Below, piece by piece: positions 221-51,579 of a DNA stretch of 53,499 bases (its first letter is position 1; the number at the start of each line of letters is the position of its first letter). The DNA is taken from positions 1-53,499 of the forward strand of contig CAZHPZ010000003.1 in NCBI GenBank assembly GCA_964534905.1. Reading direction: 5' to 3'. The stretch is from an uncultured Lachnospiraceae bacterium. Its GTDB lineage: Bacteria > Bacillota > Clostridia > Oscillospirales > CAG-272. The translations under genes and the position numbers were made by a program. A model generated the notes under the pieces. The model was not told the origin of the DNA, did not search any database, and saw nothing but the letters and a program-made list of their open reading frames with translations.

Positions 221-2107
221 TTATACGATAATAATATCTATCGTTCTGTCCTTAACGGTAAGCGCATCGCAATCAAGTATCATAGATACCTGCTCTCCTA
301 CTCTTCCGTCGTGTGCAACGATTATACTCTCCTCACCGACCGATACTCTCGAATACTTTGCAACACCGTAATCAAGAACCTCGGTCACTGTGCCGGAAAT
401 CGTTATATTTGCGTGCTGCGCGTCAACAACGTGAATGTCGTGAGCATCAAATACGTACTCAAGATCGGTATGGAATATCTTCGTTCCCTTGCACGCGAAG
501 AGCTTCTGACAAAGCTCGGGCGTGGGACGAACCTTATGTCCCGCAAATTCCATATAGAAGTTAAATGACTTCTTATCGTCGGGCTTTCTTTCTTTTGAGA
601 AAGAGCCTGCAAGAGAATTTTCTCTCTTAAGGGGTTCAATACCGCATGCCTCAACAGTAATATATCGAGTATCGATATTGAAGTTAACCACGTCGCCTAT
701 GCTGTGTGTAGGCTCACCGTTCTCAAGCGCAAAGAGAGTGAGATCCTCGACCTTAAGGAAGTAAAGCGTCTTACCCTCAAAATGCTCGATCCACTGTACG
801 GTAGCCCTTCCCTCTCCGCTTCCGAGCTTAAGTGCGGAAACGGGCATTGAAAGCTCTGCACCCTTAGCAGTCTTGTCCGCAAGTGCCGCAGGCAATGTAA
901 TGCTTTCGCCGTTAAAGGAGATCTTACCGTTGACGATATCGCAGTTAATGATATTGCCCTCGGGGATTCTCTTTCTGAGGCTGACCTCTGTCTCCTTATC
1001 AAATACATGGAATTTAACCTTACTGATAGCAATATCGATGATATCTCCGCGCTGGCAGAAGAAATCGGGCTCCGCCTTAATAACGATAGAGCCGTTCTTA
1101 GCATCGGGAGTATCTGTATTAAGGTTAGCATATACCAATGTTTCTCCGCCGAGTATTTCTACAACGCTGACAACAGCCTTTGTCTTTTCCCACTCCTTGG
1201 GATCAAGGTCGGGAGAATCCACCTTAACGGCATCCGGACGGATACCGAATACAACGGGATATTTGCCGTCCATATACTTTGTGAGTATCTTGTCGGCTTG
1301 AATATACTTCATATTGATCTTTGCGCCGCAGTCAAGATCAAAGCGAACGTCGTCACCGTTCTTTGTGATGGTAGCGTCAAAGAAATTCATCTGTGGAGTA
1401 CCGATAAATCCGGCAACGAACATATTACCGGGGTATTTGTAAAGGTTTATGGGAGTATCGATCTGCTGAACGAAGCCGAGCTTCATAACAACTATTCTCG
1501 ATCCCATAGTCATAGCCTCCACCTGGTCGTGCGTAACGTAAATAAACGTGGTACCGAGTCTCTGATGAAGTCTCGAAATCTCGGATCTCATTGCTGCACG
1601 AAGCTTAGCGTCAAGGTTTGAAAGAGGCTCGTCAAGCAAGAATACCTTGGGATTACGAACGATAGCACGTCCAAGAGCAACACGCTGACGCTGACCGCCC
1701 GAAAGAGCCTTAGGCTTACGCTGAAGATACTCTGTAATTCCGAGAATCTCCGCAGCCTCCGTAACCTTTTTGTGAATAACGTCCTTAGGCATGTGCGCCG
1801 TTTTAAGAGCAAACGCCATATTATCATAGACGCTCATATGAGGATAGAGAGCGTAGTTCTGGAAAACCATCGCAATATTTCTATCCTTTGGCTCGAAATC
1901 ATTTACGATTTCGTTATCAATGCGAAGCTCACCTGCCGTAATATCCTCAAGTCCCGCAATCATACGCAGGGTAGTTGATTTACCGCATCCCGATGGACCG
2001 ACAAAAACTATAAATTCCTTGTCCTCGATTTCCATAGAGAAATCGTTTACAGCCTTAACTCCGCCGTCATATACTTTATAAATATGTTTTAATGACAAGC
2101 TTGCCAT
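221..2107 (-). CDS. msmK: MalK/MsmK-type sugar ABC transporter ATPase with an unusually long C-terminal extension (628 aa)
   Basis: Walker A GPSGCGKST, signature LSGGQRQRV, Walker B FLLDEPLSNLD and H-loop VTHDQ are present. A normal MalK regulatory domain ends near ...KVKFHVFDKETEVSL (about aa 375), followed by about 250 further residues. ATG at 2105-2107 is preceded by AAGGAGGA. Confidence 0.93.
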   Translation of the reverse strand: MASLSLKHIYKVYDGGVKAVNDFSMEIEDKEFIVFVGPSGCGKSTTLRMIAGLEDITAGELRIDNEIVNDFEPKDRNIAMVFQNYALYPHMSVYDNMAFALKTAHMPKDVIHKKVTEAAEILGITEYLQRKPKALSGGQRQRVALGRAIVRNPKVFLLDEPLSNLDAKLRAAMRSEISRLHQRLGTTFIYVTHDQVEAMTMGSRIVVMKLGFVQQIDTPINLYKYPGNMFVAGFIGTPQMNFFDATITKNGDDVRFDLDCGAKINMKYIQADKILTKYMDGKYPVVFGIRPDAVKVDSPDLDPKEWEKTKAVVSVVEILGGETLVYANLNTDTPDAKNGSIVIKAEPDFFCQRGDIIDIAISKVKFHVFDKETEVSLRKRIPEGNIINCDIVNGKISFNGESITLPAALADKTAKGAELSMPVSALKLGSGEGRATVQWIEHFEGKTLYFLKVEDLTLFALENGEPTHSIGDVVNFNIDTRYITVEACGIEPLKRENSLAGSFSKERKPDDKKSFNFYMEFAGHKVRPTPELCQKLFACKGTKIFHTDLEYVFDAHDIHVVDAQHANITISGTVTEVLDYGVAKYSRVSVGEESIIVAHDGRVGEQVSMILDCDALTVKDRTIDIIIV

Positions 2108-2137: not shown

Positions 2138-3745
2138 TCACTTCAAAATTACTATTGAGTACGCGGGAAGCGTGAGTGTACCGTCACTTCCCCACTCAGC
2201 CTTATCGGAGCTGTTAATATAAAGCTCTCCGACTATCTCACCTGCTCCGAGCGTTGCTCGGTCAAGAGTTATCTTCTGTTCGAATGAATCAAGATTCATA
2301 ACAATGATTATACTCTCGTCCTCGTAAGTCTTACGAAGAATTGTAAGATAGTTATTCGATCCGTCGTTCAGATTTTCTATCTCACCGCGTGCGATGGACG
2401 GAAATCTGTTTCGGAGTTGCATAGCGGTCTTATAGTAATTAAGAATACTGTTCGGATCCTCAAGCTGCTCCTCAACGGAGGGATAATAATAGCTTGACGA
2501 ATCAACCTTGGTGTTTTCGGGAGGCAGGTAGCAGCAGCCCTCGTAAATGTTCTTAGCCTGCCACTTCATAGCAATTCTCTTAGCGGGATCGGAATTATTT
2601 CCGCCCTTGCTTATCATACCGATCTCCTCACCGTAATAAACGAATGTGCTTCCGTTCATCATCGAAAGGACTCCGGCTGCCATTTTTACATTATCTATTC
2701 CGGGCATAAAGCTACCGGGACGCATAGTATCATGGTTGCCGAGGAAGGGTGCGAGAATACCGTTTGTATACGTGCTTTGAAGCGTCATCATCCACTCACC
2801 GATCTTTTTTCCACTCTGTTGCTTTACAAGGCTTGCTATCTGACCATCAGCCTGAGCACCTGTGAAAAGGAAGAAGCTATCAACTCCGCTTTCATAATAG
2901 CGGTTGATAAGATAATCACTTGTTTCCCAAGCCTCTCCGACTATATAGCAATCCGATTTGATTTTCTTGGCCTCGGTGTTAAGCCAGGAAAGAAATTCAA
3001 TATTTTTGTCAACCTTGCCTTTATAATAACTCGTTACAGCATCGAGTCTGAAGCCATCGACATTATGTTCTGTAAGCCAGTAATCCATAATATCCACGAT
3101 CTCGTCTCTCACCTTAGAAGAATCAAGGTTCAAGTCGGGCATTCCCGACCAGAAGTTTGCCTCGTAATAATAATTTGTTCCCGTAACGGATGAATAAGCG
3201 CTGTTATTCTGTTGACCCGTGAGGAAATTATAATACTCACCGTATTCTCCGCCGGGCTCTCCGTTTTTACGGATATAATCACAAGCCTCCTTGAAATAGG
3301 GATGCTCGCTGCTTGTGTGGTTAATTACAAGGTCGATAATTACGTTTATACCTCTCTTGTGAGCCTCAGTAACAAGGTTATCGAAGTCCTCAAGTGTGCC
3401 GTACTGCTCGTCGATGGCATAATAATCCTTAACATCATACTTGTGATATGTAGGCGAGGGGTGTATAGGCATAAGCCAGATACCGTTAAAGCCCATCTCC
3501 TGAATATAATCAAGCTTTTGTGTTACGCCGTTAAGGTCGCCTATACCGTCATTATCGCTGTCATAAAAGCTGTATACGAATATTTCGTACCAATTTCGGT
3601 TGTTGTCATCAATAATGTTAAGCTCGATATCCGTATTGGGATTGTCCTCTCTGCCGAATATGAGATCAAGAATCTCACACGAGGTAAGAGCAATGGGCGA
3701 AAGAACCATTAAAAGTACAAGGAACAATGATAATAATTTTCTCAT
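2138..3745 (-). CDS. GH13 alpha-amylase / alpha-glucosidase family lipoprotein
   Basis: Signal peptide plus lipobox (...IALTSC). GH13 conserved regions DLVINHTS, GFRLDAVTS, VGEAW and FLGNHD are present. ATG is preceded by GGAGGT. Confidence 0.9.
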   Translation of the reverse strand: MRKLLSLFLVLLMVLSPIALTSCEILDLIFGREDNPNTDIELNIIDDNNRNWYEIFVYSFYDSDNDGIGDLNGVTQKLDYIQEMGFNGIWLMPIHPSPTYHKYDVKDYYAIDEQYGTLEDFDNLVTEAHKRGINVIIDLVINHTSSEHPYFKEACDYIRKNGEPGGEYGEYYNFLTGQQNNSAYSSVTGTNYYYEANFWSGMPDLNLDSSKVRDEIVDIMDYWLTEHNVDGFRLDAVTSYYKGKVDKNIEFLSWLNTEAKKIKSDCYIVGEAWETSDYLINRYYESGVDSFFLFTGAQADGQIASLVKQQSGKKIGEWMMTLQSTYTNGILAPFLGNHDTMRPGSFMPGIDNVKMAAGVLSMMNGSTFVYYGEEIGMISKGGNNSDPAKRIAMKWQAKNIYEGCCYLPPENTKVDSSSYYYPSVEEQLEDPNSILNYYKTAMQLRNRFPSIARGEIENLNDGSNNYLTILRKTYEDESIIIVMNLDSFEQKITLDRATLGAGEIVGELYINSSDKAEWGSDGTLTLPAYSIVILK

Positions 3746-7728: not shown

Positions 7729-10350
7729 TTAGCCCTCAACAACTACCTCGATTTTGAAGATAGGATTGTTGTTTACGGAGTTTCCAACATAGTATGTTCC
7801 TGCTTCAACTGTCTGGAACTCATAGTAATAAGGATCATTCTTTACGTTGTCTTTAGGATCATTTTCTTCAAGTATATTGCCTTCTGCATCGTAAAGAGTA
7901 ACAGGACGTTTACCATCTTCACCGGACTGATACCAAATCTTTACTGTTGTTTTGCCTGTTGTTGTGAAAGAAATGCACTGCTTTGTCTCACCGGGCTTTA
8001 TTTGTGTCTTACCGCCAAAGTTGAATCTCAAGGAAGTTTTGTATCCATCGGAGTATTCTTTCTTTGATCCGTCAAGCTTACTATTTGCACTCCAGTGGAT
8101 TGTAAAGAAGTCGTTTACAACCTCTGTTGTGTAATCAGCCTTTGCGCCTTTATCAAATTTTTCAAATGTTGCAGCGTCAAGGACATATGTTGTCTTTGTT
8201 GTTTCAACGGGTGTGTCGGGAGTAACAGGCTCCTGATACTCAACAACAGTAACTTCGCCTGTAGTAGCATTGAATGTTACCTTGTACTTACCTGCTGTTT
8301 CGATCTTGAAGTTGCCGGCGTCTGTGGGATTAGCAATTTCGATACCGCCGTCATTGCTTATCCAATTGCCGTTTGTGATCTTGAATTCAGTATTTGCGGG
8401 AACATCAAGATAGTCGCTCTCGAAAATTCCGTCATTGTTCTTGCTCAATGCGATACCATTTTCGTTACTCCAACTATTGAAGTTTCCTACAAGTACCCAA
8501 TTTGCATTTGTAGCATCACCTACAACAATGTTTTTAAATCCATGCTCGCCGAGGTTTACGATCTGCTGACCGCTTGTATATGCAAATGTTCCGTTAGGAC
8601 CTGTTTCGTTTTTCCAAGCGTGTCCGTTCGCAACAGATGCGTTAAGCAATATTTTGTATTCGTTGCTCTCTCCGAATTCTTTATCGGTAATTACATACCA
8701 AACATTTGTGCCCTCAAGATGTGTGAACTTCTGAGCGCCCTTTGCACACCAGTCAGCCCAGTTGCCCCAAGCAGAACCTGTGATATAGGGTACTGCATAA
8801 GAGGGGATCTCTTCGGAGTCGGACTTAAGTGTGAAGTAAAGTGTTACCTTTCCGTCCTCTGTGGGAACGTTGGGTGTTTCGGGCTTAGGATCGGGTGTAG
8901 GATCGGGAGTAGGATCAGTAGCCTCTGTAAATGTTACTGTCTTTGCCTCGAGATCAAATGTTACTGTATATGTGCCTGCTGCAAGGTAGAAGTTATCGTC
9001 GTTATTAGCTGCGTCCTTATACCATTCGTCGATTGCAAGAGATGAACCGTATACTACTGCTACTGCCATTACGCCGGGCTTGCCCTGATCTGCAATCCAT
9101 GAGAAGTTGCTGTTGCTTGTTACGTCTGTAACTGTAAGTGTTCCTACATACTTGCCATCTACAAGTGTAAGCTTAGGTGTTACGCCGTCCTTAACTGCAA
9201 AGTTAACTACGCCGTCACCGTCAAGGAATGTTCCTACAAGATAGTATCCAAGTGCTTCGTATGTGAAGCTGTTTGTTTCTGTGTCATACTTGAATGCGTA
9301 TGTACCTGCTGCAAGTTTAAGGTTATCACCGTTGTAGCCGATCCAATCGCTGTTTACTGTGTTATATACCTTAAGCTGTACTTCTTCTGCAAATGTAAAG
9401 ATACCTGTGTAGGATGTCTTTGTATCGTTTGCTGCAAGCTTCCACTCATCTGTAAGATCGTCGGGAGCCCAGTTATTGAAGCTACCGATGAGGTACATCT
9501 GATGTGTTTCGCTCATAGGTTCGATCTTTTCAACAAGCTCCCACTCAAGTGTGTTATACTGCATTGAGTCGGGGTATGTTGTGAATGTGAATGTGTATAC
9601 GCCGTCCTGTCCGTCTGCAAGCCAGATGTTCCATACGTCGTAGCTCTTGTTATACTCATCGGAGCCTGTGAATACTACGTTTCCGTCTGCGTCAAGAACC
9701 TGTGCTACCTTCTTATCAGCTGCTGTGTACTCTGTCTTATCGTAAGCGTTTATACCGTCACAGTACTCTGCGCCTACCATATAACCGATACCCATCTGTC
9801 CGTCCCAGCCGCCTGTATAGCAGATCTGGAACTTATCGCCTGCGTACATTTTGATTGTAAGCTTATATACGTTTGCGCCTTCTACTTCCTGCTTTTCCAT
9901 AAACAGTGTCTCTGTCTTATGGTTCCAGTTGGAAGCTGCCATATCACCTGCGCCTGCGCCGATGAAATAGTACTCATTTGTGTCTTCCACGTGAGCGTTA
10001 GACTTAAATGCCGCAAATATGTCTGTATCTTCCTCTATGGCCTTTGTAAAGTCAAACTCTTCTGTCAAGCTTGCCTCTGCAAACCAGCCCTGGAATTCCT
10101 TATCCGCTATCTCAGGTGTCCAAGATTCAAGTATTGTGCCTTTTTCAACCTTTTCTGTCTTGAGCTCCTTTGCTCCGTGATACCATGTTACCGTGACTGT
10201 ATTGTCATCCGGTGTAGGTTCGGGATTAGGATTCGGAATGATTCCGCCAAGAATGTCCTTGATGTTGTCTACCAATGCGCATCCTGTAAATACTGAAAGC
10301 ATCATTGCTATTACCATCGTCAAGGAGAGTATTCTTAATGTCTTTTTCAT
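7729..10350 (-). CDS. Multi-module cell-surface lipoprotein, putative alpha-glucan-binding protein, paralog A (873 aa)
   Basis: Lipobox ...SVFTGC. Listeria/Bacteroides-repeat-like segment TVTVTWYHGAKEL...FQGWF. At least five beta-sandwich-type modules begin (Y/W)xL(I/V)G.FN.W and end AGTYxxTF.....T(V/F)T.E. PT-rich linker TDPTPDPTPDPKPETP. Function is inferred from locus context only. Confidence 0.85.
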   Translation of the reverse strand: MKKTLRILSLTMVIAMMLSVFTGCALVDNIKDILGGIIPNPNPEPTPDDNTVTVTWYHGAKELKTEKVEKGTILESWTPEIADKEFQGWFAEASLTEEFDFTKAIEEDTDIFAAFKSNAHVEDTNEYYFIGAGAGDMAASNWNHKTETLFMEKQEVEGANVYKLTIKMYAGDKFQICYTGGWDGQMGIGYMVGAEYCDGINAYDKTEYTAADKKVAQVLDADGNVVFTGSDEYNKSYDVWNIWLADGQDGVYTFTFTTYPDSMQYNTLEWELVEKIEPMSETHQMYLIGSFNNWAPDDLTDEWKLAANDTKTSYTGIFTFAEEVQLKVYNTVNSDWIGYNGDNLKLAAGTYAFKYDTETNSFTYEALGYYLVGTFLDGDGVVNFAVKDGVTPKLTLVDGKYVGTLTVTDVTSNSNFSWIADQGKPGVMAVAVVYGSSLAIDEWYKDAANNDDNFYLAAGTYTVTFDLEAKTVTFTEATDPTPDPTPDPKPETPNVPTEDGKVTLYFTLKSDSEEIPSYAVPYITGSAWGNWADWCAKGAQKFTHLEGTNVWYVITDKEFGESNEYKILLNASVANGHAWKNETGPNGTFAYTSGQQIVNLGEHGFKNIVVGDATNANWVLVGNFNSWSNENGIALSKNNDGIFESDYLDVPANTEFKITNGNWISNDGGIEIANPTDAGNFKIETAGKYKVTFNATTGEVTVVEYQEPVTPDTPVETTKTTYVLDAATFEKFDKGAKADYTTEVVNDFFTIHWSANSKLDGSKKEYSDGYKTSLRFNFGGKTQIKPGETKQCISFTTTGKTTVKIWYQSGEDGKRPVTLYDAEGNILEENDPKDNVKNDPYYYEFQTVEAGTYYVGNSVNNNPIFKIEVVVEG

Positions 10351-10378
10351 TGATAAATCTCCTTCCAGATTTTCAAAT
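8777..10378 (-). repeat. Direct repeat copy A (1,602 bp), apparently identical to 11989-13590
   Basis: Offset is exactly 3,212 bp. All sequence lines I compared match, and translations are identical in several frames of the ORF track (9919..10296 = 13131..13508). It covers 28 nt of 5' UTR plus codons 1-~525 (identity ends inside codon 525; the proteins stay identical to codon 527). Confidence 0.9.
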
Positions 10379-10448
10379 TATTAATTAGTTAATAAATTCT
10401 CGGGGGAGCCAAAAGGCATGACTACCCTTATAATTTACTACATATGTA

Positions 10449-10477
10449 ATTATAATACTTTACTAACAATATGTCAA
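10449..10477 (-). promoter_or_regulatory. Consensus sigma-A promoter of lipoprotein paralog A
   Basis: Minus strand reads TTGACA (10477-10472), a 17-nt spacer, then TATAAT (10454-10449). The 5' UTR is about 95 nt. Confidence 0.7.
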
Positions 10478-10646
10478 GTTTTTTACCCTCTGACTGTTCA
10501 AATTCGATTATTTGCACATTTTCCAATGCCAAATTTTGTGCATTTTGATAGTTCCCTTTCGCACCCGCCTTTTTATATCATTTTGTTGCATAAATGAACC
10601 TCCCTCAGACTACACAAAACACAAAATTTATCAATTCTCGTCCATA

Positions 10647-10677
10647 TAAAAAACTCCCTCACCCGAGGGTGAGGGAG
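10647..10677 (-). terminator. Intrinsic terminator of lipoprotein paralog B
   Basis: CTCCCTCACCC / GGGTGAGGGAG stem (10654-10677) followed on the minus strand by TTTTTT. Confidence 0.85.
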
Positions 10678-10694
10678 AAAATTTATTTGAGTTA

Positions 10695-13562
10695 TTAACC
10701 TACAAATACGTCGATAGAATCCATTCTTACCTGTGCGCCAAGAGTAGCAATTTCAAACGAATTCTGTGCTGTTTCAAACTCAACAGTTACTGCACTACCA
10801 TTTGTTGTAACTGTGCAACCAGTAAAGCCATTCAAAGATGAAGCAAGAGCAGTTGCATATTTAGCAGAATTACAATTAAATACTATCTTAGTCATGCCTT
10901 CGCATGCAACAATCAACTGTGAACTCTGATAAAAACGTGCAGGTCCTGTATAGTCTGCTACATCGTTTGAAGACGAAGCCTTATTATTAGTAACAGTAAT
11001 TCCGTTTGCAGACCATACCTGAGAATTCGCGTCAAAACTCGTTCTATTACTTGCACTTGCAAAACTAAGCGTCTTCTGGTTATCCTCAACTACAGGATCT
11101 TCATGACCTGTAATTTCAGCCGTACCACCTGCTGCGAGCTGCTTAGAATCATTGTAAGAACCGATAACACCGGTGATAGTTACGATATCACCAACTTCAA
11201 CCTTAGTTGCAAGTCTGTAAATATAGAACTCGTTTTCACCGTCGGAAATGGTAACCGTTATATTGTTAAACTGTGTGCTCCAAGCTGTAACGATCTTAAT
11301 AACCTTACCCTTAAGAATAACCTTTGTTCCATCAGGAAGCTCTGCAGCTTCTTTAAGGGATACTTCAAAGGTGTAGTCGGGATCAAGCTCGCCACAGTCG
11401 CACTTACCGTTTGTGTAGCTGTGCTCATGAGGCTTTTCAACAACAGTAACTTCGCAAGTTGTGGGATTGAATGTTACCTTGTACTTACCTGCTGTCTCGA
11501 TCTTGAAGTTGCCGGCGTTTGCGGGATTAGTAATCTCGATACCGCCATCGCTGCTCATCCAACCACCGTTTGTAATCTTAAATTCTGTATTTGCGGAAAC
11601 TTCGATGTATTCGCTCTCGAAGATACCGTCATCATTCTTTGTCATTGCAAAAGCATTATCAAGGTTCCAGTCCTTAATACCTACAATGCTCCAAGTTGCA
11701 TTTGCAGGATCAGCAACGTTGATATTTGCAAATCCATGCTCACCGAGGTTTATAATCTGCTGACCTTCTGTAAACGTATAGTCAGCATTTCCGTCTCCGC
11801 CTATTTCAGCATGAACAACGGAGGGGTTCTTCCAACCGTGTCCGTTAGCTATATCTGCGTTAAGAAGAATCTTATATTGACCACTTGCTGTAACCTTATC
11901 TGTGATTACATACCAAACGTTTGTGCCCTCAAGATGTGTGAACTTCTGAGCACCCTTTACGCACCAGTCAGACCAGCCCCATGCACCGCCTGTGATATAG
12001 GGTACTGCATAAGAGGGGATCTCTTCGGAGTCGGACTTAAGTGTGAAGTAAAGTGTTACCTTTCCGTCCTCTGTGGGAACGTTGGGTGTTTCGGGCTTAG
12101 GATCGGGTGTAGGATCGGGAGTAGGATCAGTAGCCTCTGTAAATGTTACTGTCTTTGCCTCGAGATCAAATGTTACTGTATATGTGCCTGCTGCAAGGTA
12201 GAAGTTATCGTCGTTATTAGCTGCGTCCTTATACCATTCGTCGATTGCAAGAGATGAACCGTATACTACTGCTACTGCCATTACGCCGGGCTTGCCCTGA
12301 TCTGCAATCCATGAGAAGTTGCTGTTGCTTGTTACGTCTGTAACTGTAAGTGTTCCTACATACTTGCCATCTACAAGTGTAAGCTTAGGTGTTACGCCGT
12401 CCTTAACTGCAAAGTTAACTACGCCGTCACCGTCAAGGAATGTTCCTACAAGATAGTATCCAAGTGCTTCGTATGTGAAGCTGTTTGTTTCTGTGTCATA
12501 CTTGAATGCGTATGTACCTGCTGCAAGTTTAAGGTTATCACCGTTGTAGCCGATCCAATCGCTGTTTACTGTGTTATATACCTTAAGCTGTACTTCTTCT
12601 GCAAATGTAAAGATACCTGTGTAGGATGTCTTTGTATCGTTTGCTGCAAGCTTCCACTCATCTGTAAGATCGTCGGGAGCCCAGTTATTGAAGCTACCGA
12701 TGAGGTACATCTGATGTGTTTCGCTCATAGGTTCGATCTTTTCAACAAGCTCCCACTCAAGTGTGTTATACTGCATTGAGTCGGGGTATGTTGTGAATGT
12801 GAATGTGTATACGCCGTCCTGTCCGTCTGCAAGCCAGATGTTCCATACGTCGTAGCTCTTGTTATACTCATCGGAGCCTGTGAATACTACGTTTCCGTCT
12901 GCGTCAAGAACCTGTGCTACCTTCTTATCAGCTGCTGTGTACTCTGTCTTATCGTAAGCGTTTATACCGTCACAGTACTCTGCGCCTACCATATAACCGA
13001 TACCCATCTGTCCGTCCCAGCCGCCTGTATAGCAGATCTGGAACTTATCGCCTGCGTACATTTTGATTGTAAGCTTATATACGTTTGCGCCTTCTACTTC
13101 CTGCTTTTCCATAAACAGTGTCTCTGTCTTATGGTTCCAGTTGGAAGCTGCCATATCACCTGCGCCTGCGCCGATGAAATAGTACTCATTTGTGTCTTCC
13201 ACGTGAGCGTTAGACTTAAATGCCGCAAATATGTCTGTATCTTCCTCTATGGCCTTTGTAAAGTCAAACTCTTCTGTCAAGCTTGCCTCTGCAAACCAGC
13301 CCTGGAATTCCTTATCCGCTATCTCAGGTGTCCAAGATTCAAGTATTGTGCCTTTTTCAACCTTTTCTGTCTTGAGCTCCTTTGCTCCGTGATACCATGT
13401 TACCGTGACTGTATTGTCATCCGGTGTAGGTTCGGGATTAGGATTCGGAATGATTCCGCCAAGAATGTCCTTGATGTTGTCTACCAATGCGCATCCTGTA
13501 AATACTGAAAGCATCATTGCTATTACCATCGTCAAGGAGAGTATTCTTAATGTCTTTTTCAT
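10695..13562 (-). CDS. Multi-module cell-surface lipoprotein, putative alpha-glucan-binding protein, paralog B (955 aa), with a distinct OB-fold-like C-terminal region
   Basis: The first 527 aa are identical to paralog A. The next ~185 aa are diverged homologues. The unique 246-aa tail has a HEHSYTNGKCDCG motif, an OB-fold-like segment (KVILKGKVIKI...FYIYRL...VGDIVTITGVIGSYNDSKQL) and an unassigned terminal domain. Confidence 0.85.
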   Translation of the reverse strand: MKKTLRILSLTMVIAMMLSVFTGCALVDNIKDILGGIIPNPNPEPTPDDNTVTVTWYHGAKELKTEKVEKGTILESWTPEIADKEFQGWFAEASLTEEFDFTKAIEEDTDIFAAFKSNAHVEDTNEYYFIGAGAGDMAASNWNHKTETLFMEKQEVEGANVYKLTIKMYAGDKFQICYTGGWDGQMGIGYMVGAEYCDGINAYDKTEYTAADKKVAQVLDADGNVVFTGSDEYNKSYDVWNIWLADGQDGVYTFTFTTYPDSMQYNTLEWELVEKIEPMSETHQMYLIGSFNNWAPDDLTDEWKLAANDTKTSYTGIFTFAEEVQLKVYNTVNSDWIGYNGDNLKLAAGTYAFKYDTETNSFTYEALGYYLVGTFLDGDGVVNFAVKDGVTPKLTLVDGKYVGTLTVTDVTSNSNFSWIADQGKPGVMAVAVVYGSSLAIDEWYKDAANNDDNFYLAAGTYTVTFDLEAKTVTFTEATDPTPDPTPDPKPETPNVPTEDGKVTLYFTLKSDSEEIPSYAVPYITGGAWGWSDWCVKGAQKFTHLEGTNVWYVITDKVTASGQYKILLNADIANGHGWKNPSVVHAEIGGDGNADYTFTEGQQIINLGEHGFANINVADPANATWSIVGIKDWNLDNAFAMTKNDDGIFESEYIEVSANTEFKITNGGWMSSDGGIEITNPANAGNFKIETAGKYKVTFNPTTCEVTVVEKPHEHSYTNGKCDCGELDPDYTFEVSLKEAAELPDGTKVILKGKVIKIVTAWSTQFNNITVTISDGENEFYIYRLATKVEVGDIVTITGVIGSYNDSKQLAAGGTAEITGHEDPVVEDNQKTLSFASASNRTSFDANSQVWSANGITVTNNKASSSNDVADYTGPARFYQSSQLIVACEGMTKIVFNCNSAKYATALASSLNGFTGCTVTTNGSAVTVEFETAQNSFEIATLGAQVRMDSIDVFVG

Positions 13563-13590
13563 TGATAAATCTCCTTCCAGATTTTCAAAT
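11989..13590 (-). repeat. Direct repeat copy B (1,602 bp), apparently identical to 8777-10378
   Basis: See copy A. Identity breaks at 11988/8776 (GCACCGCC vs GCAGAACC) and at 13591/10379. Confidence 0.9.
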
Positions 13591-13661
13591 ATAGTTTTTA
13601 GTTAACAGATCTGCGAGCGGTTAAAAAGGCGTTTTTCGCCCACAGCGTCTATTACTCATTT

Positions 13662-13690
13662 ATTGTAAACCCATTTGACAAAATTGTCAA
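13662..13690 (-). promoter_or_regulatory. Sigma-A promoter of lipoprotein paralog B
   Basis: Minus strand reads TTGACA (13690-13685), a 17-nt spacer, then TACAAT (13667-13662). The -35 lies inside the palindrome TTGACAAAATTGTCAA. Confidence 0.65.
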
Positions 13691-13783
13691 GTCATTAACG
13701 ATTTATTAATAAAAGTTCGACTTTTTGCACAAAATAGATTTAGCAATTTTATCTAATTTGCAAGTTGAAAACTTCTCGGCAAT

Positions 13784-13817
13784 AAAAAGCGAGGCACGCA
13801 CCCCGAGGGTGCGTGCC
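13784..13817 (-). terminator. Intrinsic terminator of the malQ-pulA unit
   Basis: GGCACGCACCC (13793-13803) / GGGTGCGTGCC (13807-13817) stem followed on the minus strand by a T-run. Confidence 0.85.
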
Positions 13818-13826
13818 GAATATGCT

Positions 13827-16544
13827 TTAATTTACGTATACTCTTACGGAGCATGCGCCGACAGTCACTGTGCCGCTCTCTGTTGCAAGAGTTGCAGAGC
13901 CTGCTCTCGTTCCGTCCGCAACAAGCTTCCATTCGCCCTTGAGCGTATAGGAATCGCTGCCTGTTGTGGGGTTGATGAGAACGATTGCCTTGCCGCCCTT
14001 ATGGTCGTCATAGGAAACCGCCATTCCGCCACCGGAAAGGTTTGTGAATGTGATTGCAGTGTTGCTTGTTGTGAATATTGAGAATGCCTTTCTCATCTGC
14101 GCAAGTCCTGCGTAGTATTTCATCATCTCATATTCATTTGAGCCCTCTGCGAGTGCATCCCATCTGATGTTATTTGTAGCATCGCAGGATTTATAGCTGT
14201 TTTCGTCATATTTGGGATTGCCGTTCTCGTCGTATACGGGGTTACCGTTAGAGTCGTACTTAGGCTTTGAACGGAGCATTTCCTCGCCCGCCTGTACAAA
14301 CGGTGTTCCCTTCGAAATGAAGAGGATTGCCGCACCAAGACGGTTCATAGCAAGTCTTTCCTCAACAGTTGCATCGGGTCTCGACATAGAAAGCTTATCC
14401 CAAAGGGTGTTGTTATCGTGCGCGCTCATATAGTTAATTACCATGCTGTTCTTAACTGTCCAAGATGCGCCCGTTCCCGTACCGCCTCTGATTCCGAACT
14501 TGACCTGATCAGCCATACCCTTATAGTTACCGCTGATATAGCCTGTGGATGCGCTTGAGAACACGCTTCCCTTAAGTCCGTCACGAATTGCGTCGTTGAA
14601 TACCGCTACGCTGCCGATAGCTCCGCTTGTAGCTTCAATCTTGCTGATGTTCGACTGGTTCGCCTGAGCTGTGCCGTCGATTGTGGAGCCCATTGTCCAG
14701 CCCTCACCGTAAATAATTGCCTTAGGATCGATAGCGTGTACTGCTGCCTCAACCTCCTTGATAGTTTCAAGGTCATGAAGTCCCATAAGGTCAAAGCGGA
14801 ATCCGTCAAGGTCGTATTCCTCAAGCCAATACGTTACGCTCTCTACCATAAACTTACCGAACATATAACGCTCGGAAGCAGTATCGTTACCGCATCCCGA
14901 TGCGCTGGAGTTTGCACCGGTGTCGGTATATCTGTAATAGTAATAAGGAACGATTCTGTTGAATGAGCTGTTCTTATCATAGGTATGGTTATAAACAACG
15001 TCCATAATTACGCCGATTCCCGCATTATGGAGTGCCTGTACCATCTGCTTGAACTCTGTGATTCTTACCTCACCGTTATAGGGATCGGTGCTGTAGCTTC
15101 CCTCGGGAACATTATAGTTCTTAGGGTCATATCCCCAGTTGAACTGCTCGTCGGGCTTTGTTTCGTCTACTGTCGCAAAGTCGTAAACGGGGTTGAGGTG
15201 AACGTGTGTAACGCCAAGCTCAACAAGGTAATCGATACCTACGGAAATTCCGTTTTCGTTTACAAGTCCGTTTTCGGTGAACGCAAGATACTTGCCCTTA
15301 TACTGTGAGCTTTCGATAAGATTACTGAAGTCACGAACGTGTACTTCCCAAATGAAAGCATCGGAATAAGAATTGATATCGGATGTAAATGTTGTATCCC
15401 AATCTGCGGGATCTGTCTTATCAAGGTCAACAACCATCGTTCTGTCGCCGTTTACACCCGCTGCCTTACCGTAGGGGTCGGTTGCAATCTGTGTTCCGAC
15501 GCTTGTGGTTACGGTGTAGGTATAGTACGTGCCGTGACCTACGCCCTCGGCGGTATATTCCCAAACGCCCTTTTCACCGCGTGTCATTTCAACATTATCG
15601 TATGCGTCAACGCCGTTACCCTTTGTGTAAAGGTTAAGAACTACCTTTGACGCCGTGGGTGCCCATACCTTAAAGGTTGTAGCTGTTCCGTGAATATAGG
15701 AACCGAGATCGTCTCCGTCGTAATGATAGAGTGCAGCAAATTCCTTGCTGTCGAAAATATCGGTAGGAACTATTGCCTTTCTGCCGAATCCCTCTATCTC
15801 AAGCTCATATGTCTTGCTGAGGTCGAGTGTCTCCTCAACCTTGATCTTACCTGTTGTCGTTTCCTTACCCATAGAGCTTACCTCAAGAACAGTAAGAAGC
15901 TCGTCGCCGTCCCAAACCTTGATCTGTTTGTAGGATGTAAGCTTCATCTTGGGTGTAATGCTGTATTCGATAGTATGGAAATCAACCATAGCAGCAAGTC
16001 TGAAATCTTTAATCATTTCCAAAGTTTTACCACCGTCTTTACTTGTGTATTGCGCTTCTTCACCTGATTTAAGCCAGATGTAAGTGTCGGTTCCGGTCAG
16101 AATTGCTTCACGGTCTCCGTCAAAGTCCTTGGTTGCTGTGCCCCAAGATGAGCCGCCGGGCTCGTCGCAATTCGTACGAACGATAAATCCGACCTTATCT
16201 ATTCCTTCGGGAACGTTTACGGTAGCCTTAGCACCGTATTCGCACTCGTGCATAAGATAGCCCGAGCCTTCCTTGCCGTCCCACCATACCCACAGGTCGC
16301 AATCCTCGATTACGCCCGGATATGACCAATAGAATGTGATCTGATTATAGCCTTCTTCTCTTTCAAGCTTCCACTCGTCCTCCGGAGGAGTCCATGTGGT
16401 GCCATCTCCGTTCGTTGTTGTATCGGAGGGAGTTGTTGTCGTCGTGCCATCTGGGAAAAGCCACTGGCACGATGTTCCGAACATACCGAACATCATAGCT
16501 ACAAGCAAGAAAAGGGATAAATGCTTGATCAATGTTTTTTTCAT
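13827..16544 (-). CDS. pulA: Type I pullulanase (GH13 with CBM48-type N-terminal modules), lipoprotein
   Basis: Lipobox ...FGTSC. GH13 regions DVVYNHT, GFRFDLMGL, YGEGW and YMSAHDN are present. TTFKVWAPTASKVVLNLY is a pullulanase-type CBM48 segment. Confidence 0.93.
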   Translation of the reverse strand: MKKTLIKHLSLFLLVAMMFGMFGTSCQWLFPDGTTTTTPSDTTTNGDGTTWTPPEDEWKLEREEGYNQITFYWSYPGVIEDCDLWVWWDGKEGSGYLMHECEYGAKATVNVPEGIDKVGFIVRTNCDEPGGSSWGTATKDFDGDREAILTGTDTYIWLKSGEEAQYTSKDGGKTLEMIKDFRLAAMVDFHTIEYSITPKMKLTSYKQIKVWDGDELLTVLEVSSMGKETTTGKIKVEETLDLSKTYELEIEGFGRKAIVPTDIFDSKEFAALYHYDGDDLGSYIHGTATTFKVWAPTASKVVLNLYTKGNGVDAYDNVEMTRGEKGVWEYTAEGVGHGTYYTYTVTTSVGTQIATDPYGKAAGVNGDRTMVVDLDKTDPADWDTTFTSDINSYSDAFIWEVHVRDFSNLIESSQYKGKYLAFTENGLVNENGISVGIDYLVELGVTHVHLNPVYDFATVDETKPDEQFNWGYDPKNYNVPEGSYSTDPYNGEVRITEFKQMVQALHNAGIGVIMDVVYNHTYDKNSSFNRIVPYYYYRYTDTGANSSASGCGNDTASERYMFGKFMVESVTYWLEEYDLDGFRFDLMGLHDLETIKEVEAAVHAIDPKAIIYGEGWTMGSTIDGTAQANQSNISKIEATSGAIGSVAVFNDAIRDGLKGSVFSSASTGYISGNYKGMADQVKFGIRGGTGTGASWTVKNSMVINYMSAHDNNTLWDKLSMSRPDATVEERLAMNRLGAAILFISKGTPFVQAGEEMLRSKPKYDSNGNPVYDENGNPKYDENSYKSCDATNNIRWDALAEGSNEYEMMKYYAGLAQMRKAFSIFTTSNTAITFTNLSGGGMAVSYDDHKGGKAIVLINPTTGSDSYTLKGEWKLVADGTRAGSATLATESGTVTVGACSVRVYVN

Positions 16545-18232: not shown

Positions 18233-19216
18233 TTATCCGTTTGACTGTTTGTTTTTTCTGTGCTTTGCTATTATATTATCGAATGCCTCGGCAATGGGAT
18301 AATACGCCGCAACCGTTATAAAAATAATCCATGTAGGATGCCAAATTCCGTGATAAAGTCCGATATAAAGATATATAAATGCAGTCAATATCGGATATGA
18401 AAACTTACAAAAGCTTTTATGCTGTATGGCATCAACCAAGGAATACCAGATGGGTATTGTCAAAAAGATTATCCACGAATATGCCCATCCGCCGCACACA
18501 CCGTAGCATCCGAATATCAGGTAAGCGATGATGCAAAGTATTGTATATGGCGTGTTAAGCACAATCGTCAGAGCAATGCCCTTGTCATTTTCTTCATCAT
18601 TCTCATCATCTTCATCGTCATAGTCATCGTCATCGAAATTCTTTCCGTGCTTGTTTTTGCTTTTTTGCCTTATTTTGATCCCGTCAAAGCCAAGCCTTAC
18701 CGTATCTCCATCCTCGGACTCAACGGTAATTCCCTTGTTGTGTATAATAGCGTCCTTTATTGCGTTTTTAAGTGCTTTATTCACATCATCATCCGAATCG
18801 ATATCGTCGCTCAAATTTGCGCTATTCTCAGCGGAATCGGAGGAACCTTGCTTTATTTTAACTCCGTCGTCTCCGACATTTATCGTAACTCGGTTACCGT
18901 TCTTATCGTTCACGGTTATAAACGCAGCACCGTTTTTGTCTGTCTCAGAAGAGTCAGCTCCGTCAGCTGTACTCTCATCATTTTCATTATCCGATTCATT
19001 ATCAGTCGATTCTTCTGTTCCGTATATAAGCTGATCAAGAGTAAGACCGTATATTTTCGCCAAAGCTATAAGGTTATCCGTATCGGGAGACGCCTCGCTT
19101 CTTTCCCATTTTGATACCGCCTGGCGTGAAACACCGAGCTTCTCCGCAAGCTCCTCCTGAGAAAGTCCCTGTTTCTTTCTTAATTTCAACAATCTGTTTG
19201 CCGTTTCAATAGTCAT
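18233..19216 (-). CDS. XRE-family HTH protein with acidic linker and C-terminal multi-pass membrane domain
   Basis: N-terminus LRKKQGLSQEELAEKLGVSRQAVSKWERSEASPDTDNL is an HTH_3 motif. D/E/N/S-rich region includes DDDDYDDEDDENDEEND. Two related segments are ITVNDKNGNRVTINVGDDGVKIKQ and ITVESEDGDTVRLGFDGIKIRQ. The last ~115 aa are hydrophobic TM helices. Confidence 0.85.
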   Translation of the reverse strand: MTIETANRLLKLRKKQGLSQEELAEKLGVSRQAVSKWERSEASPDTDNLIALAKIYGLTLDQLIYGTEESTDNESDNENDESTADGADSSETDKNGAAFITVNDKNGNRVTINVGDDGVKIKQGSSDSAENSANLSDDIDSDDDVNKALKNAIKDAIIHNKGITVESEDGDTVRLGFDGIKIRQKSKNKHGKNFDDDDYDDEDDENDEENDKGIALTIVLNTPYTILCIIAYLIFGCYGVCGGWAYSWIIFLTIPIWYSLVDAIQHKSFCKFSYPILTAFIYLYIGLYHGIWHPTWIIFITVAAYYPIAEAFDNIIAKHRKNKQSNG

Positions 19217-31107: not shown

Positions 31108-31770
31108 TTAAAGTGCTTTTTCGCAAGTCTTTATTTGCGGAATACGTACTGTTATCAAAGCAACAAGTGCCGTAATAATTATTTCGGGAATCATATACAG
31201 TCCGTTATACACAACAGAATAAATAATCGAAAGCTCAAATCCCGAGAATGTATCGACTATTACCTGTCCCCAAGCGGGAAAGCCGTCCTGCGTAAAGAAC
31301 CACTCTGCCCAGGTGCCGAAGAATACGGCACCGGAAACGATATGTGCGACGTAACGCAACGTAAGTGCCAAAATACTTCCGAGACAAAGTGCTTTTCCCT
31401 TTGAATATTTTTCGCGGAAAACTCCGCCAAAGCCCAGCACGGTATATGCAATTACATAATCTATAATGCACACAAGTATCGCACGCCACCAAACCATCTG
31501 GCTGTCACCCGGAAGAAAGAATGCGCTCACTGTACCGAAGCCGAGCAATAATTGCACGAATGAATAAGCAAATGCGGTAAGCAGTCCCCAACGTGTGCCA
31601 TACATATATGCCACTATAACTATCGGCAACATACTTGCAACGGTAAATCCGCCGCCAAACGGAAGATTAAGAAACGGCATAGCCGAGCAAACGGCAGATA
31701 TCGCAACCGAAAATGCGATCATAACAGCGCTAAGCGTTATAGCTTGCGCTCTTGTTTTGTTTTCTCTCAT
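31108..31770 (-). CDS. thiT: ECF transporter substrate-specific (S) component, thiamine-type (ThiT-like)
   Basis: 220-aa, six-TM small membrane protein directly downstream of a TPP riboswitch. ATG follows GGAGGT. Substrate is assigned from the riboswitch. Confidence 0.8.
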   Translation of the reverse strand: MRENKTRAQAITLSAVMIAFSVAISAVCSAMPFLNLPFGGGFTVASMLPIVIVAYMYGTRWGLLTAFAYSFVQLLLGFGTVSAFFLPGDSQMVWWRAILVCIIDYVIAYTVLGFGGVFREKYSKGKALCLGSILALTLRYVAHIVSGAVFFGTWAEWFFTQDGFPAWGQVIVDTFSGFELSIIYSVVYNGLYMIPEIIITALVALITVRIPQIKTCEKAL

Positions 31771-31831: not shown

Positions 31832-31844
31832 CAGAGACAACTCT

Positions 31845-31935
31845 GTAGTTCTACCTACGACGGCATTATCCGTATCAGGTTAAAGGGTTCAAGGCAAAAT
31901 CCGCCTCATCTCAGCAAAAAGCACCCCTGACTTTA
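31845..31935 (-). promoter_or_regulatory. TPP (THI-box) riboswitch aptamer
   Basis: Minus strand reads AGGGGTGC..GCTGAGA...ACCCTTTAACCTGATACGGATAATGCCGTCGTAGG. This matches the conserved GGGGUGC / CUGAGA / ACCC..AACCUGAU..GGAUAAUGCC..CG.AGG cores of RF00059. Confidence 0.9.
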
Positions 31936-31952
31936 TATGCGATTGTAAGATA

Positions 31953-51300: not shown

Positions 51301-51378
51301 TGGGGTGAGTGATGGGATTCGAACCCACGGCCTCCAGGGCCACAACCTGGCGCTATAACCAACTTAGCTACACCCACC
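51301..51378 (-). tRNA. tRNA-His (GTG), CCA encoded, with the extra 5' G(-1)
   Basis: Reverse complement is GGTGGGTGTAGCTAAGTTGGTTATAGCGCCAGGTTGTGGCCCTGGAGGCCGTGGGTTCGAATCCCATCACTCACCCCA. It folds as a cloverleaf with anticodon loop TTGTGGC and an 8-bp acceptor stem. Confidence 0.93.
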
Positions 51379-51403
51379 ATAACCAAAGGGTATTCCCTTC
51401 GGC

Positions 51404-51480
51404 TGGCGTGCCTTGAGGGATTCGAACCCCCGACCTACTGCTTAGAAGGCAGTTGCTCTATCCGACTGAGCTAAAGGCAC
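51404..51480 (-). tRNA. tRNA-Arg (TCT), CCA encoded
   Basis: Reverse complement is GTGCCTTTAGCTCAGTCGGATAGAGCAACTGCCTTCTAAGCAGTAGGTCGGGGGTTCGAATCCCTCAAGGCACGCCA. The anticodon loop is CTTCTAA. Confidence 0.93.
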
Positions 51481-51505
51481 ATAATAAGCCGACTTAACGT
51501 CGGCT

Positions 51506-51579
<74 letters not shown>

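Follow-up and report, generated by a model that had tools for sequence, protein, structure and literature searches.

The 53,499-bp stretch of DNA analysed here (the window) is the whole of contig CAZHPZ010000003.1 in assembly GCA_964534905.1, from an uncultured Lachnospiraceae bacterium (GTDB lineage Bacteria; Bacillota; Clostridia; Oscillospirales; CAG-272). It carries two tandem lipoprotein genes, called gene A and gene B, that share a long identical block at their 5' ends. Both genes lie in a starch/maltodextrin operon encoded entirely on the minus strand, in the order helix-turn-helix (HTH) regulator, GH77 4-alpha-glucanotransferase, GH13 pullulanase (with CBM48 and PUD domains), gene B, gene A, ABC solute-binding protein (SBP), two permeases, GH13 amylase, and a MalK-like ATPase. 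The pair belongs to a starch locus, adjoining pullulanase and GH77 genes upstream and the SBP, permease, amylase, and MalK-like ATPase genes downstream. Elsewhere in the window the genes are core-chromosomal (PolC, Mfd, Pth, IspG, Dxr, UppS, Frr, PyrH, RuvC, and tRNAs). The protein encoded by gene A consists, in order, of a B-repeat (amino acids (aa) ~50-117), three SusF/X25-like beta-sandwiches (~125-478), a Pro/Thr linker, two middle modules (~500-704), and a C-terminal head. The parts of the two genes are as follows.

7729 to 10350, minus strand: gene A, encoding an 873-aa lipoprotein with the signal peptide …VFTG-C24
10695 to 13562, minus strand: gene B, encoding a 955-aa lipoprotein; residues 1-525 equal those of A, followed by middle modules (aa 526-709) and head B
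8777 to 10378, minus strand: identical block, gene A copy; 28 nucleotides (nt) of leader with the ribosome-binding site (RBS) GGAAGGAG, codons 1-524, and two bases of codon 525
11989 to 13590, minus strand: identical block, gene B copy; 1602/1602 positions as in 8777-10378
8239 to 8776, minus strand: gene A middle region (codons 526-704), an old paralogue of the B middle region
11436 to 11988, minus strand: gene B middle region (codons 526-709)
7729 to 8238, minus strand: head A (aa 705-873); its Pfam match is weak and PPC-like, and its structure is poorly modelled
10695 to 11435, minus strand: head B (aa 710-955), with a Cys-containing linker, an OB fold, and a C-terminal module

Direct comparison within the window found 8777-10378 and 11989-13590 identical at all 1602 positions. 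The offset between them is 3,212 bp exactly; at this spacing, the longest stretch without a mismatch spans precisely 8777-10378. In a whole-window repeat scan this pair was the sole long repeat, and no inverted repeats were found. The block accounts for the 5' 60% of gene A and 56% of gene B, and 1,610 bp separate its two copies. The leader portion of each copy is 28 nt of 5' untranslated region (UTR) (…CTGGAAGGAGATTTATCAATG). At the other edge, the first difference between the genes is a synonymous change in codon 525 (GGT/GGC), followed immediately by an S/G replacement and a 1-codon deletion. The original prediction had described a 1,602-bp identity at this offset with these two edges, a block of 28 nt of 5' UTR plus ~525 codons, and unrelated tails of 169 and 246 codons. 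Direct comparison and the repeat scan bore out the identity, offset, and edges, the coding part is 524 codons plus two bases of codon 525, and both tail lengths are correct. The identity ends at a sharp edge, and mismatches are not spread evenly along the paired genes. All four block junctions (promoter B/block, block/middle B, gene B terminator/promoter A, and block/middle A) are unique sequence. No RNA element in the block scored above Rfam thresholds, and no base-composition anomaly was found.

Synonymous sites separate the block clearly from its surroundings. Within the block there are 0 differences at ~338 synonymous sites (0/1602 positions overall), in contrast to the next 183 aligned codons (549 nt), where nucleotide identity is 75.6%, synonymous divergence (dS) is ≈0.78, nonsynonymous divergence (dN) is ≈0.21, and their ratio (omega) is ≈0.27. 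At the adjacent 75.6% level, the chance of a 1,602-nt identity is ~0.756^1602, effectively zero. The middle regions had been said to differ by one 1-codon indel, which is incorrect; alignment of middle A (526-704) with middle B (526-709) requires several indels (1, 1, 6+2, and 1 codons). At the protein level these regions are 71-75% identical to each other, and either is 40% identical to that of P0002, the protein of the nearest relative. The shared N-terminal part of A and B (the base) is 78% identical to the P0002 base in amino acids and 80% in nucleotides. Because synonymous sites are identical in the block, dS is ≈0.78 next to it, and the unit is not uniform, the homogenisation appears to have occurred long after the paralogues diverged. 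Two simple explanations were rejected. Purifying selection does not account for the block, since synonymous sites are identical too, and a plain fresh tandem duplication does not fit a 3,212-bp unit that is not identical throughout.

We consider it likely that the block results from recent segmental interlocus gene conversion between old tandem SusE/F-like lipoprotein paralogues. One copy would have overwritten the 5' 1,602 bp of the other by homologous recombination. The 5' end of the tract would have been resolved in a short conserved anchor formed by the leader, RBS, and signal peptide, and the 3' end at a locally conserved stretch of the first middle module. Resolution at these two places would account for the start of identity 28 nt ahead of the ATG and for its end within a domain. 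The original prediction pointed to the mid-domain stop; the stop was seen, but it carries no special meaning and is a normal outcome of homologous recombination. Homology beyond the tract comprises 549 aligned nt on the 3' side, where identical runs of 30-32 nt persist in the first middle module just past the edge and are enough for recombination to resolve. On the 5' side it comprises ~55% identity and common boxes, and the loci L049 and L044 described below suggest that a conserved leader/RBS/signal-peptide anchor would have provided the homology for exchanges. Such an anchor would account for the onset of the block 28 nt upstream of the ATG despite ~55% identity further up. The recombination mechanism itself we infer from this pattern. 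The two genes now differ in expression context, in the middle modules, which have diverged, and in the C-terminal heads, which are unrelated.

Several observations weigh against gene conversion as described here or limit its detail. Immediately 5' of the block, A and B share only TTAACTAA, after which identity is ~55%, without long homology upstream, and the 5' resolution point depends on a presumed ancestral anchor. Either copy could have been the donor. Copy number and exact identity come from one assembly, and if its assembler traversed a de Bruijn-graph loop, true divergence of up to ~1-2% would be hidden. Signs of several conversion events of differing age in the middle region were marginal (permutation P 0.02; third-position heterogeneity P 0.046) and were not used as evidence. 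The starch-binding role assigned below to the shared part would follow from fold and gene context only.

A 1.6-kb exact repeat exceeds typical short-read inserts, and loop-resolving assemblers emit a repeat edge twice. The assembly may therefore inflate the identity, with both copies written from one collapsed path or homogenised during polishing, in which case there would be real low-level differences or a copy number other than two. The window is an entire contig, and the protein relatives are all from uncultured metagenome-assembled genomes (MAGs). Contigs of several relatives break inside the base gene (L028, L030, L041/L048, L042, and L043), and at L044, where the assembler kept the two copies apart, they are 94.8% and not 100% identical. 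Nevertheless, we regard an assembly origin of the identity as unlikely. Even under collapse, divergence in the block would not exceed a few per cent, compared to 24% in the adjacent sequence, and the conclusion of conversion would survive it. All four junctions are unique sequence with no other shared seeds in the window, and L049 independently contains the junction of terminator, promoter A, and RBS.

A profile scan of GTDB genomes yielded 45 related loci, whereas a scan with a single protein yielded none. The exact protein of gene A was present on no other contig, and its protein cluster contains A and B alone, both from one NCBI contig. When JGI metagenomes were searched for exact 31-mers of the shared leader, there was no match. 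The collections searched thus contained no sequence from the same species. L001 and L004 keep the gene order of the window: regulator, GH77, pullulanase, OB-head lipoprotein, base+head-A lipoprotein, SBP, two permeases, amylase, and MalK. Downstream of the pullulanase gene, both have an OB-head lipoprotein gene whose N-terminal region is different and Cys-rich, then a spacer of ~320 nt, the base+head-A gene, and the SBP gene.

The nearest relative, P0002, is encoded on L049, a 3,544-nt Logan contig of SRR14160744 from an independent sequencing run. P0002 is B-like, with base, linker, middle modules, OB fold, and tail. After the stop codon of this gene, L049 has the same terminator, a promoter-A region that is 85% identical, the same RBS, and ATGAAAAAGACATTAA. 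The contig carries an identical 30-mer, AAGGAGATTTATCAATGAAAAAGACATTAA, at both ends, as a k=31 graph would yield if two genes shared just 30 nt. This suggests that the assembly graph branches at a 30-nt segment common to two successive genes. The two genes share no 31-mer beyond this 30-nt anchor, and the second gene was not recovered. Judged from these relatives, the arrangement of a B gene, terminator, promoter A, and second gene appears to be real and older than this genome, and the tandem layout is ancestral (L001, L004, and L049). The 1.6-kb homogenisation looks like a recent lineage-specific event and not a demonstrably maintained state, because L049 has the tandem layout with only ~30 nt in common. 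An old duplication with recent homogenisation of the 5' halves had been proposed in the original prediction and agrees with the dS contrast (0 in the block and 0.78 in the downstream stretch). The suggestion that conversion is ongoing is not shown, given that the L049 pair shares only ~30 nt.

The same relatives bear on two other origins of the locus. Strain mixtures are common in metagenomes, and the DNA is of metagenomic origin, so two strains, one A-type and one B-type, may have been stitched together through the shared block into a false tandem. We consider this extremely unlikely. Positions 10379-10694, from the gene B terminator to promoter A, are continuous unique sequence joining gene B to the second block copy; L049 keeps the order of B-like gene, terminator, A-type promoter, and RBS; and in L001 and L004 an OB-head gene is followed by a base+head-A gene between pullulanase and SBP. 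A second possibility is a recent whole-gene tandem duplication, after which the 3' two-fifths of one copy (middle, head, terminator, and promoter) were replaced by imported DNA. Both heads are mobile modules present on many different proteins, and the middle regions have diverged to approximately the between-species level, as an import would predict. Yet this history would need two events, with the ends of the import falling exactly in homologous sequence, and a layout of two genes that differ in head and promoter is older than this genome. Moreover, middle A and middle B are mutually closest (71-75%, compared to 40% to P0002). Import into a fresh duplicate is thus very unlikely, and gene conversion between old paralogues remains the preferred explanation.

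Direct repeats recombine, giving deletion or amplification. Recombination of one block copy with the other would remove 3,212 bp, leaving promoter B to drive gene A with head B lost; alternatively, it would amplify a unit of middle B, head B, terminator, and promoter A. The original prediction extended this to population-level variation in the displayed head, a sound but hypothetical extension of the general behaviour of direct repeats. It is conceivable that the block and its 5' anchor serve such head switching or amplification as programmed variation, producing regulated surface heterogeneity. The locus L044, from a distant relative, has two neighbouring genes for lipoproteins of 719 and 359 aa, each with a promoter of its own; the promoters have diverged, and the 3' parts are unrelated. 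Their 5' block (11103-11635 and 13647-14174) is 94.8% identical over 535 nt. The aligned block starts ~100 nt before the ATG (11103, with the gene start at 11204), and perfect identity extends from ~-29 to ~+335 (~360 nt), with its onset 28-30 nt before the ATG at …TTGGAAGGAG. From its sequence, the L044 pair appears to be an independent analogue of the A/B block, and the similar onset would be expected if the anchor had a programmed role. The unit of 3' part, intergenic region, and 5' part also matches the recombination unit of the lpl genes in Staphylococcus aureus (PMC2568036). Against programmed variation, the scanned open reading frames (ORFs) of at least 150 aa yielded neither a site-specific recombinase or reverse transcriptase nor an invertible element or silent cassette. 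Deletion would be irreversible, a long shared block is present at only 2 of ~50 loci, and the nearest relative pair shares only ~30 nt. We therefore regard programmed variation as highly improbable, and the locus does not qualify as a phase- or antigenic-variation system, as the window has no inverted or other repeats besides the block pair.

The mobile-element content of the window was assessed by Pfam search of the same ORFs, which identified housekeeping genes only. No transposase or insertion sequence element, site-specific recombinase, or reverse transcriptase was found among them, and RuvC is the sole recombination protein in this set. A mobile element, an invertase, or a diversity-generating retroelement was accordingly rejected as the source of the block, none being present among these ORFs.

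A broader possibility is that lipoprotein genes of Gram-positive starch loci form a cassette system based on the leader/RBS/signal-peptide anchor and on long identical 5' blocks, in which RecA-mediated exchange, deletion, and amplification between neighbours routinely re-pair a starch-binding body with different heads and promoters. We consider this unlikely. If true, a gut commensal population would hold standing heterogeneity in surface binding, similar to adhesin variation in pathogens but serving nutrient capture.

Contig ends and repeats in the relatives gave some further observations. Among the contigs that end inside the base gene, the end of L041 and the start of L048, which belong to one MAG (JAZSIL01), overlap by ~230 nt at only 94.8% identity. 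Base sequences in this MAG appear to be of two similar kinds, which would represent paralogues or strains. The contigs L042 and L043 come from two separate MAGs and share a break point at residue ~201. In the relative RGIG6331, a ~309-bp tandem repeat with 98% identity lies upstream of the locus (L009, 564-1413).

The N-terminus encoded by the block is a signal peptide that ends in a lipobox, MKKTLRILSLTMVIAMMLSVFTG-C24. C24 is invariant in 22 aligned homologues and also in an alignment of 56. Sequence searches against PDB and NCBIfam returned nothing meaningful for the A/B proteins, and the sole Pfam match of the base above threshold was a weak one to Flg_new (InlB B-repeat). An AlphaFold2 model based on the 56-sequence alignment has a predicted local distance difference test (pLDDT) score >90 over aa 50-478, and it comprises one small domain and three beta-sandwiches. 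In Foldseek, the best PDB match of the base was SusF (4fe9_A; E 1.9e-7, probability 1.00, 428 aligned columns), which places the base with the SusF fold. The next matches were the X25-2 module of Ruminococcus bromii Sca5 (7rpy_A; E 4.4e-4, probability 1.00) and then the InlB B-repeat. The base had no match to Pfam SusF_SusE (PF16411). The second middle module, which is related to a base module, scored 19.1 bits against PF16411 (E 0.0017), below the 27.5 cut-off, and is not assigned to that family. The modelled fold suggests that the shared part is probably the starch-binding body of a Gram-positive SusE/SusF analogue and not a passive stalk. The original prediction had pictured a constant stalk carrying alternative heads; the heads are indeed unrelated, whereas the supposed stalk is a B-repeat and three SusF/X25-like modules, after which the block continues through the linker into the next module.

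The base has numerous homologues, all of them in MAGs of uncultured animal-gut Clostridia; the majority have ~485 aa, equivalent to residues 1-480. The middle modules were found elsewhere only in P0002. For these modules and head A, the AlphaFold2 model of gene A is poor owing to a shallow alignment, and their folds are hinted at by weak Pfam matches. A homologue search with middle region A plus head A gave only two uninformative hits. In P0003-P0007, L001, L003, and L004, head A is joined straight onto the base. Head B was modelled with a pLDDT of 90 as an OB fold (aa ~733-820, RPA/YgiW-like) and a ~125-aa alpha/beta C-terminal module. The C-terminal module had no structural match, the best 50 Foldseek hits being all OB folds. 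Both head B modules are widespread and mobile among gut Clostridia, occurring on many unrelated extracellular proteins, often in several copies. In head B and in P0002, the OB fold is flanked by a short CxxC motif. The same CxxC motif occurs in Cys-rich repeat arrays of ~35-aa units (…CTxxGLTEGKHCSVCGEVL…, up to 1,737 aa in total) on neighbouring lipoproteins at L001 (7451-9679), L004 (5439-7679), and L044 (1370-6583 and 6918-9314).

Segmental exchange between paralogous lipoprotein genes has been described in S. aureus, where the lpl genes form a tandem lipoprotein-like cluster with a conserved intragenic segment that is a site of homologous recombination (Tsuru and Kobayashi, 2008; PMC2568036). 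The unit that moves or persists consists of the 3' variable part of one ORF, the intervening intergenic region, and the following ORF's 5' part (PMC2568036). Genes A and B are likewise tandem paralogous lipoprotein genes, and the 1,610-bp stretch between the block copies corresponds exactly to the lpl unit. In lpl, however, the conserved segment is central, is present in many copies, and was compared across more than ten genomes, whereas here a 5' segment in two copies is 100% identical in one genome. The lpl cluster is on a genomic island linked to host interaction, whereas A and B are in a carbohydrate operon of the core chromosome.

In Helicobacter pylori, RecA-dependent interlocus conversion between babA and babB and between sabA and sabB makes chimeras and alters display, and this was shown experimentally. 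As in babA/babB, A and B are paralogous surface-protein genes with near-identical end segments and divergent parts (the ligand-binding parts in bab). The bab loci differ in being dispersed and in encoding Gram-negative outer-membrane adhesins under immune selection, whereas A and B are tandem and their conversion is deduced from one sequence.

In function, the closest comparison is with SusE and SusF of Bacteroides thetaiotaomicron (PDB 4fe9), which are also adjacent paralogous surface lipoproteins with tandem beta-sandwiches, encoded beside a transporter and amylase/pullulanase. Sequence identity to SusF is only 15%. Here the host is a Gram-positive bacterium that has an ABC importer in place of SusC/D, and the A/B proteins add an InlB-type B-repeat and heads (an OB fold and a weakly PPC-like head). 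Unlike A and B, SusE and SusF have no identical block between them. The X25 modules of R. bromii Sca5/Sas20 (PDB 7rpy; PMC9112005) are similar in forming tandem beta-sandwiches in gut Clostridia, and the R. bromii proteins function in non-catalytic starch adherence. No sequence similarity of A/B to these X25 proteins was detectable, and amylosome proteins attach by cohesin-dockerin pairs, whereas A and B would attach by a predicted lipid anchor.

Most described segmental conversions in bacterial surface genes concern pathogen adhesins. This kind of event is already familiar in bacterial surface-protein genes, and the A/B block would add a clean, datable segmental conversion from an uncultured gut commensal, in a locus for nutrient acquisition. 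The base also defines an uncharacterised ~485-aa Gram-positive lipoprotein family (a B-repeat with three SusF/X25-like modules), likely to be functional analogues of SusE/SusF. This family is widespread in animal-gut Clostridia MAGs and always lies beside a maltodextrin-type ABC transporter. In MAGs, contigs are likely to break or to carry copy-number errors at a perfect repeat of 1.6 kb, and long reads are needed to establish the gene content of such loci.

The two genes are served by separate promoters, both outside the identical block, and a terminator precedes each of them. The features concerned are as follows.

10449 to 10477, minus strand: promoter-like site of gene A, TTGACA-17-TATAAT (12/12), outside the block
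13662 to 13690, minus strand: promoter-like site of gene B, TTGACA-17-TACAAT (11/12), outside the block
10654 to 10677, minus strand: intrinsic terminator after gene B, CTCCCTCACCCTCGGGTGAGGGAG followed by a T-run; kept after the B-like gene of L049
13793 to 13817, minus strand: intrinsic terminator after the pullulanase gene, upstream of promoter B
10503 to 10518, minus strand: 16-nt box TGTGCAAATAATCGAA, ~25 nt upstream of the promoter A -35 hexamer
13716 to 13731, minus strand: 16-nt box TGTGCAAAAAGTCGAA, at the equivalent position upstream of promoter B

The upstream regions had been predicted to differ in promoters and leaders. They do differ, but they are not unrelated, as both have a consensus sigma-70 promoter, a common 16-nt box, and patches of similarity. 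A distance of 25 nt separates the gene A stop codon from the SBP start, and gene A is therefore probably co-transcribed with the ABC transporter; gene B is probably monocistronic. The 16-nt box (TGTGCAAAWARTCGAA) occurs in the window only at the two lipoprotein promoters (0.25 chance matches expected), and it is also present upstream of the second gene of L049 (~3350-3365). It may be a candidate operator for the HTH_3-type regulator of the locus (18233-19216). Both leaders are ~90-100 nt long and contain, outside the block (~10395-10420 and ~13608-13640, minus strand), a short GC hairpin with a T-run (…GCCTTTT…), as does L049. This hairpin could be an attenuator or a processing signal.

Some other features of the window were noted. 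The MalK-like ABC ATPase (221-2107, minus strand) has 628 aa, ~250 aa more than a typical MalK, and its C-terminal extension has no Pfam match; the 628-aa form is also encoded in L001, L003, and L004. A thiamine pyrophosphate (TPP) riboswitch (62.5 bits) is located at 31835-31938 (minus strand), upstream of a YuaJ-type thiamine transporter gene (31108-31770). Three tRNA genes are clustered at 51304-51579 (minus strand).

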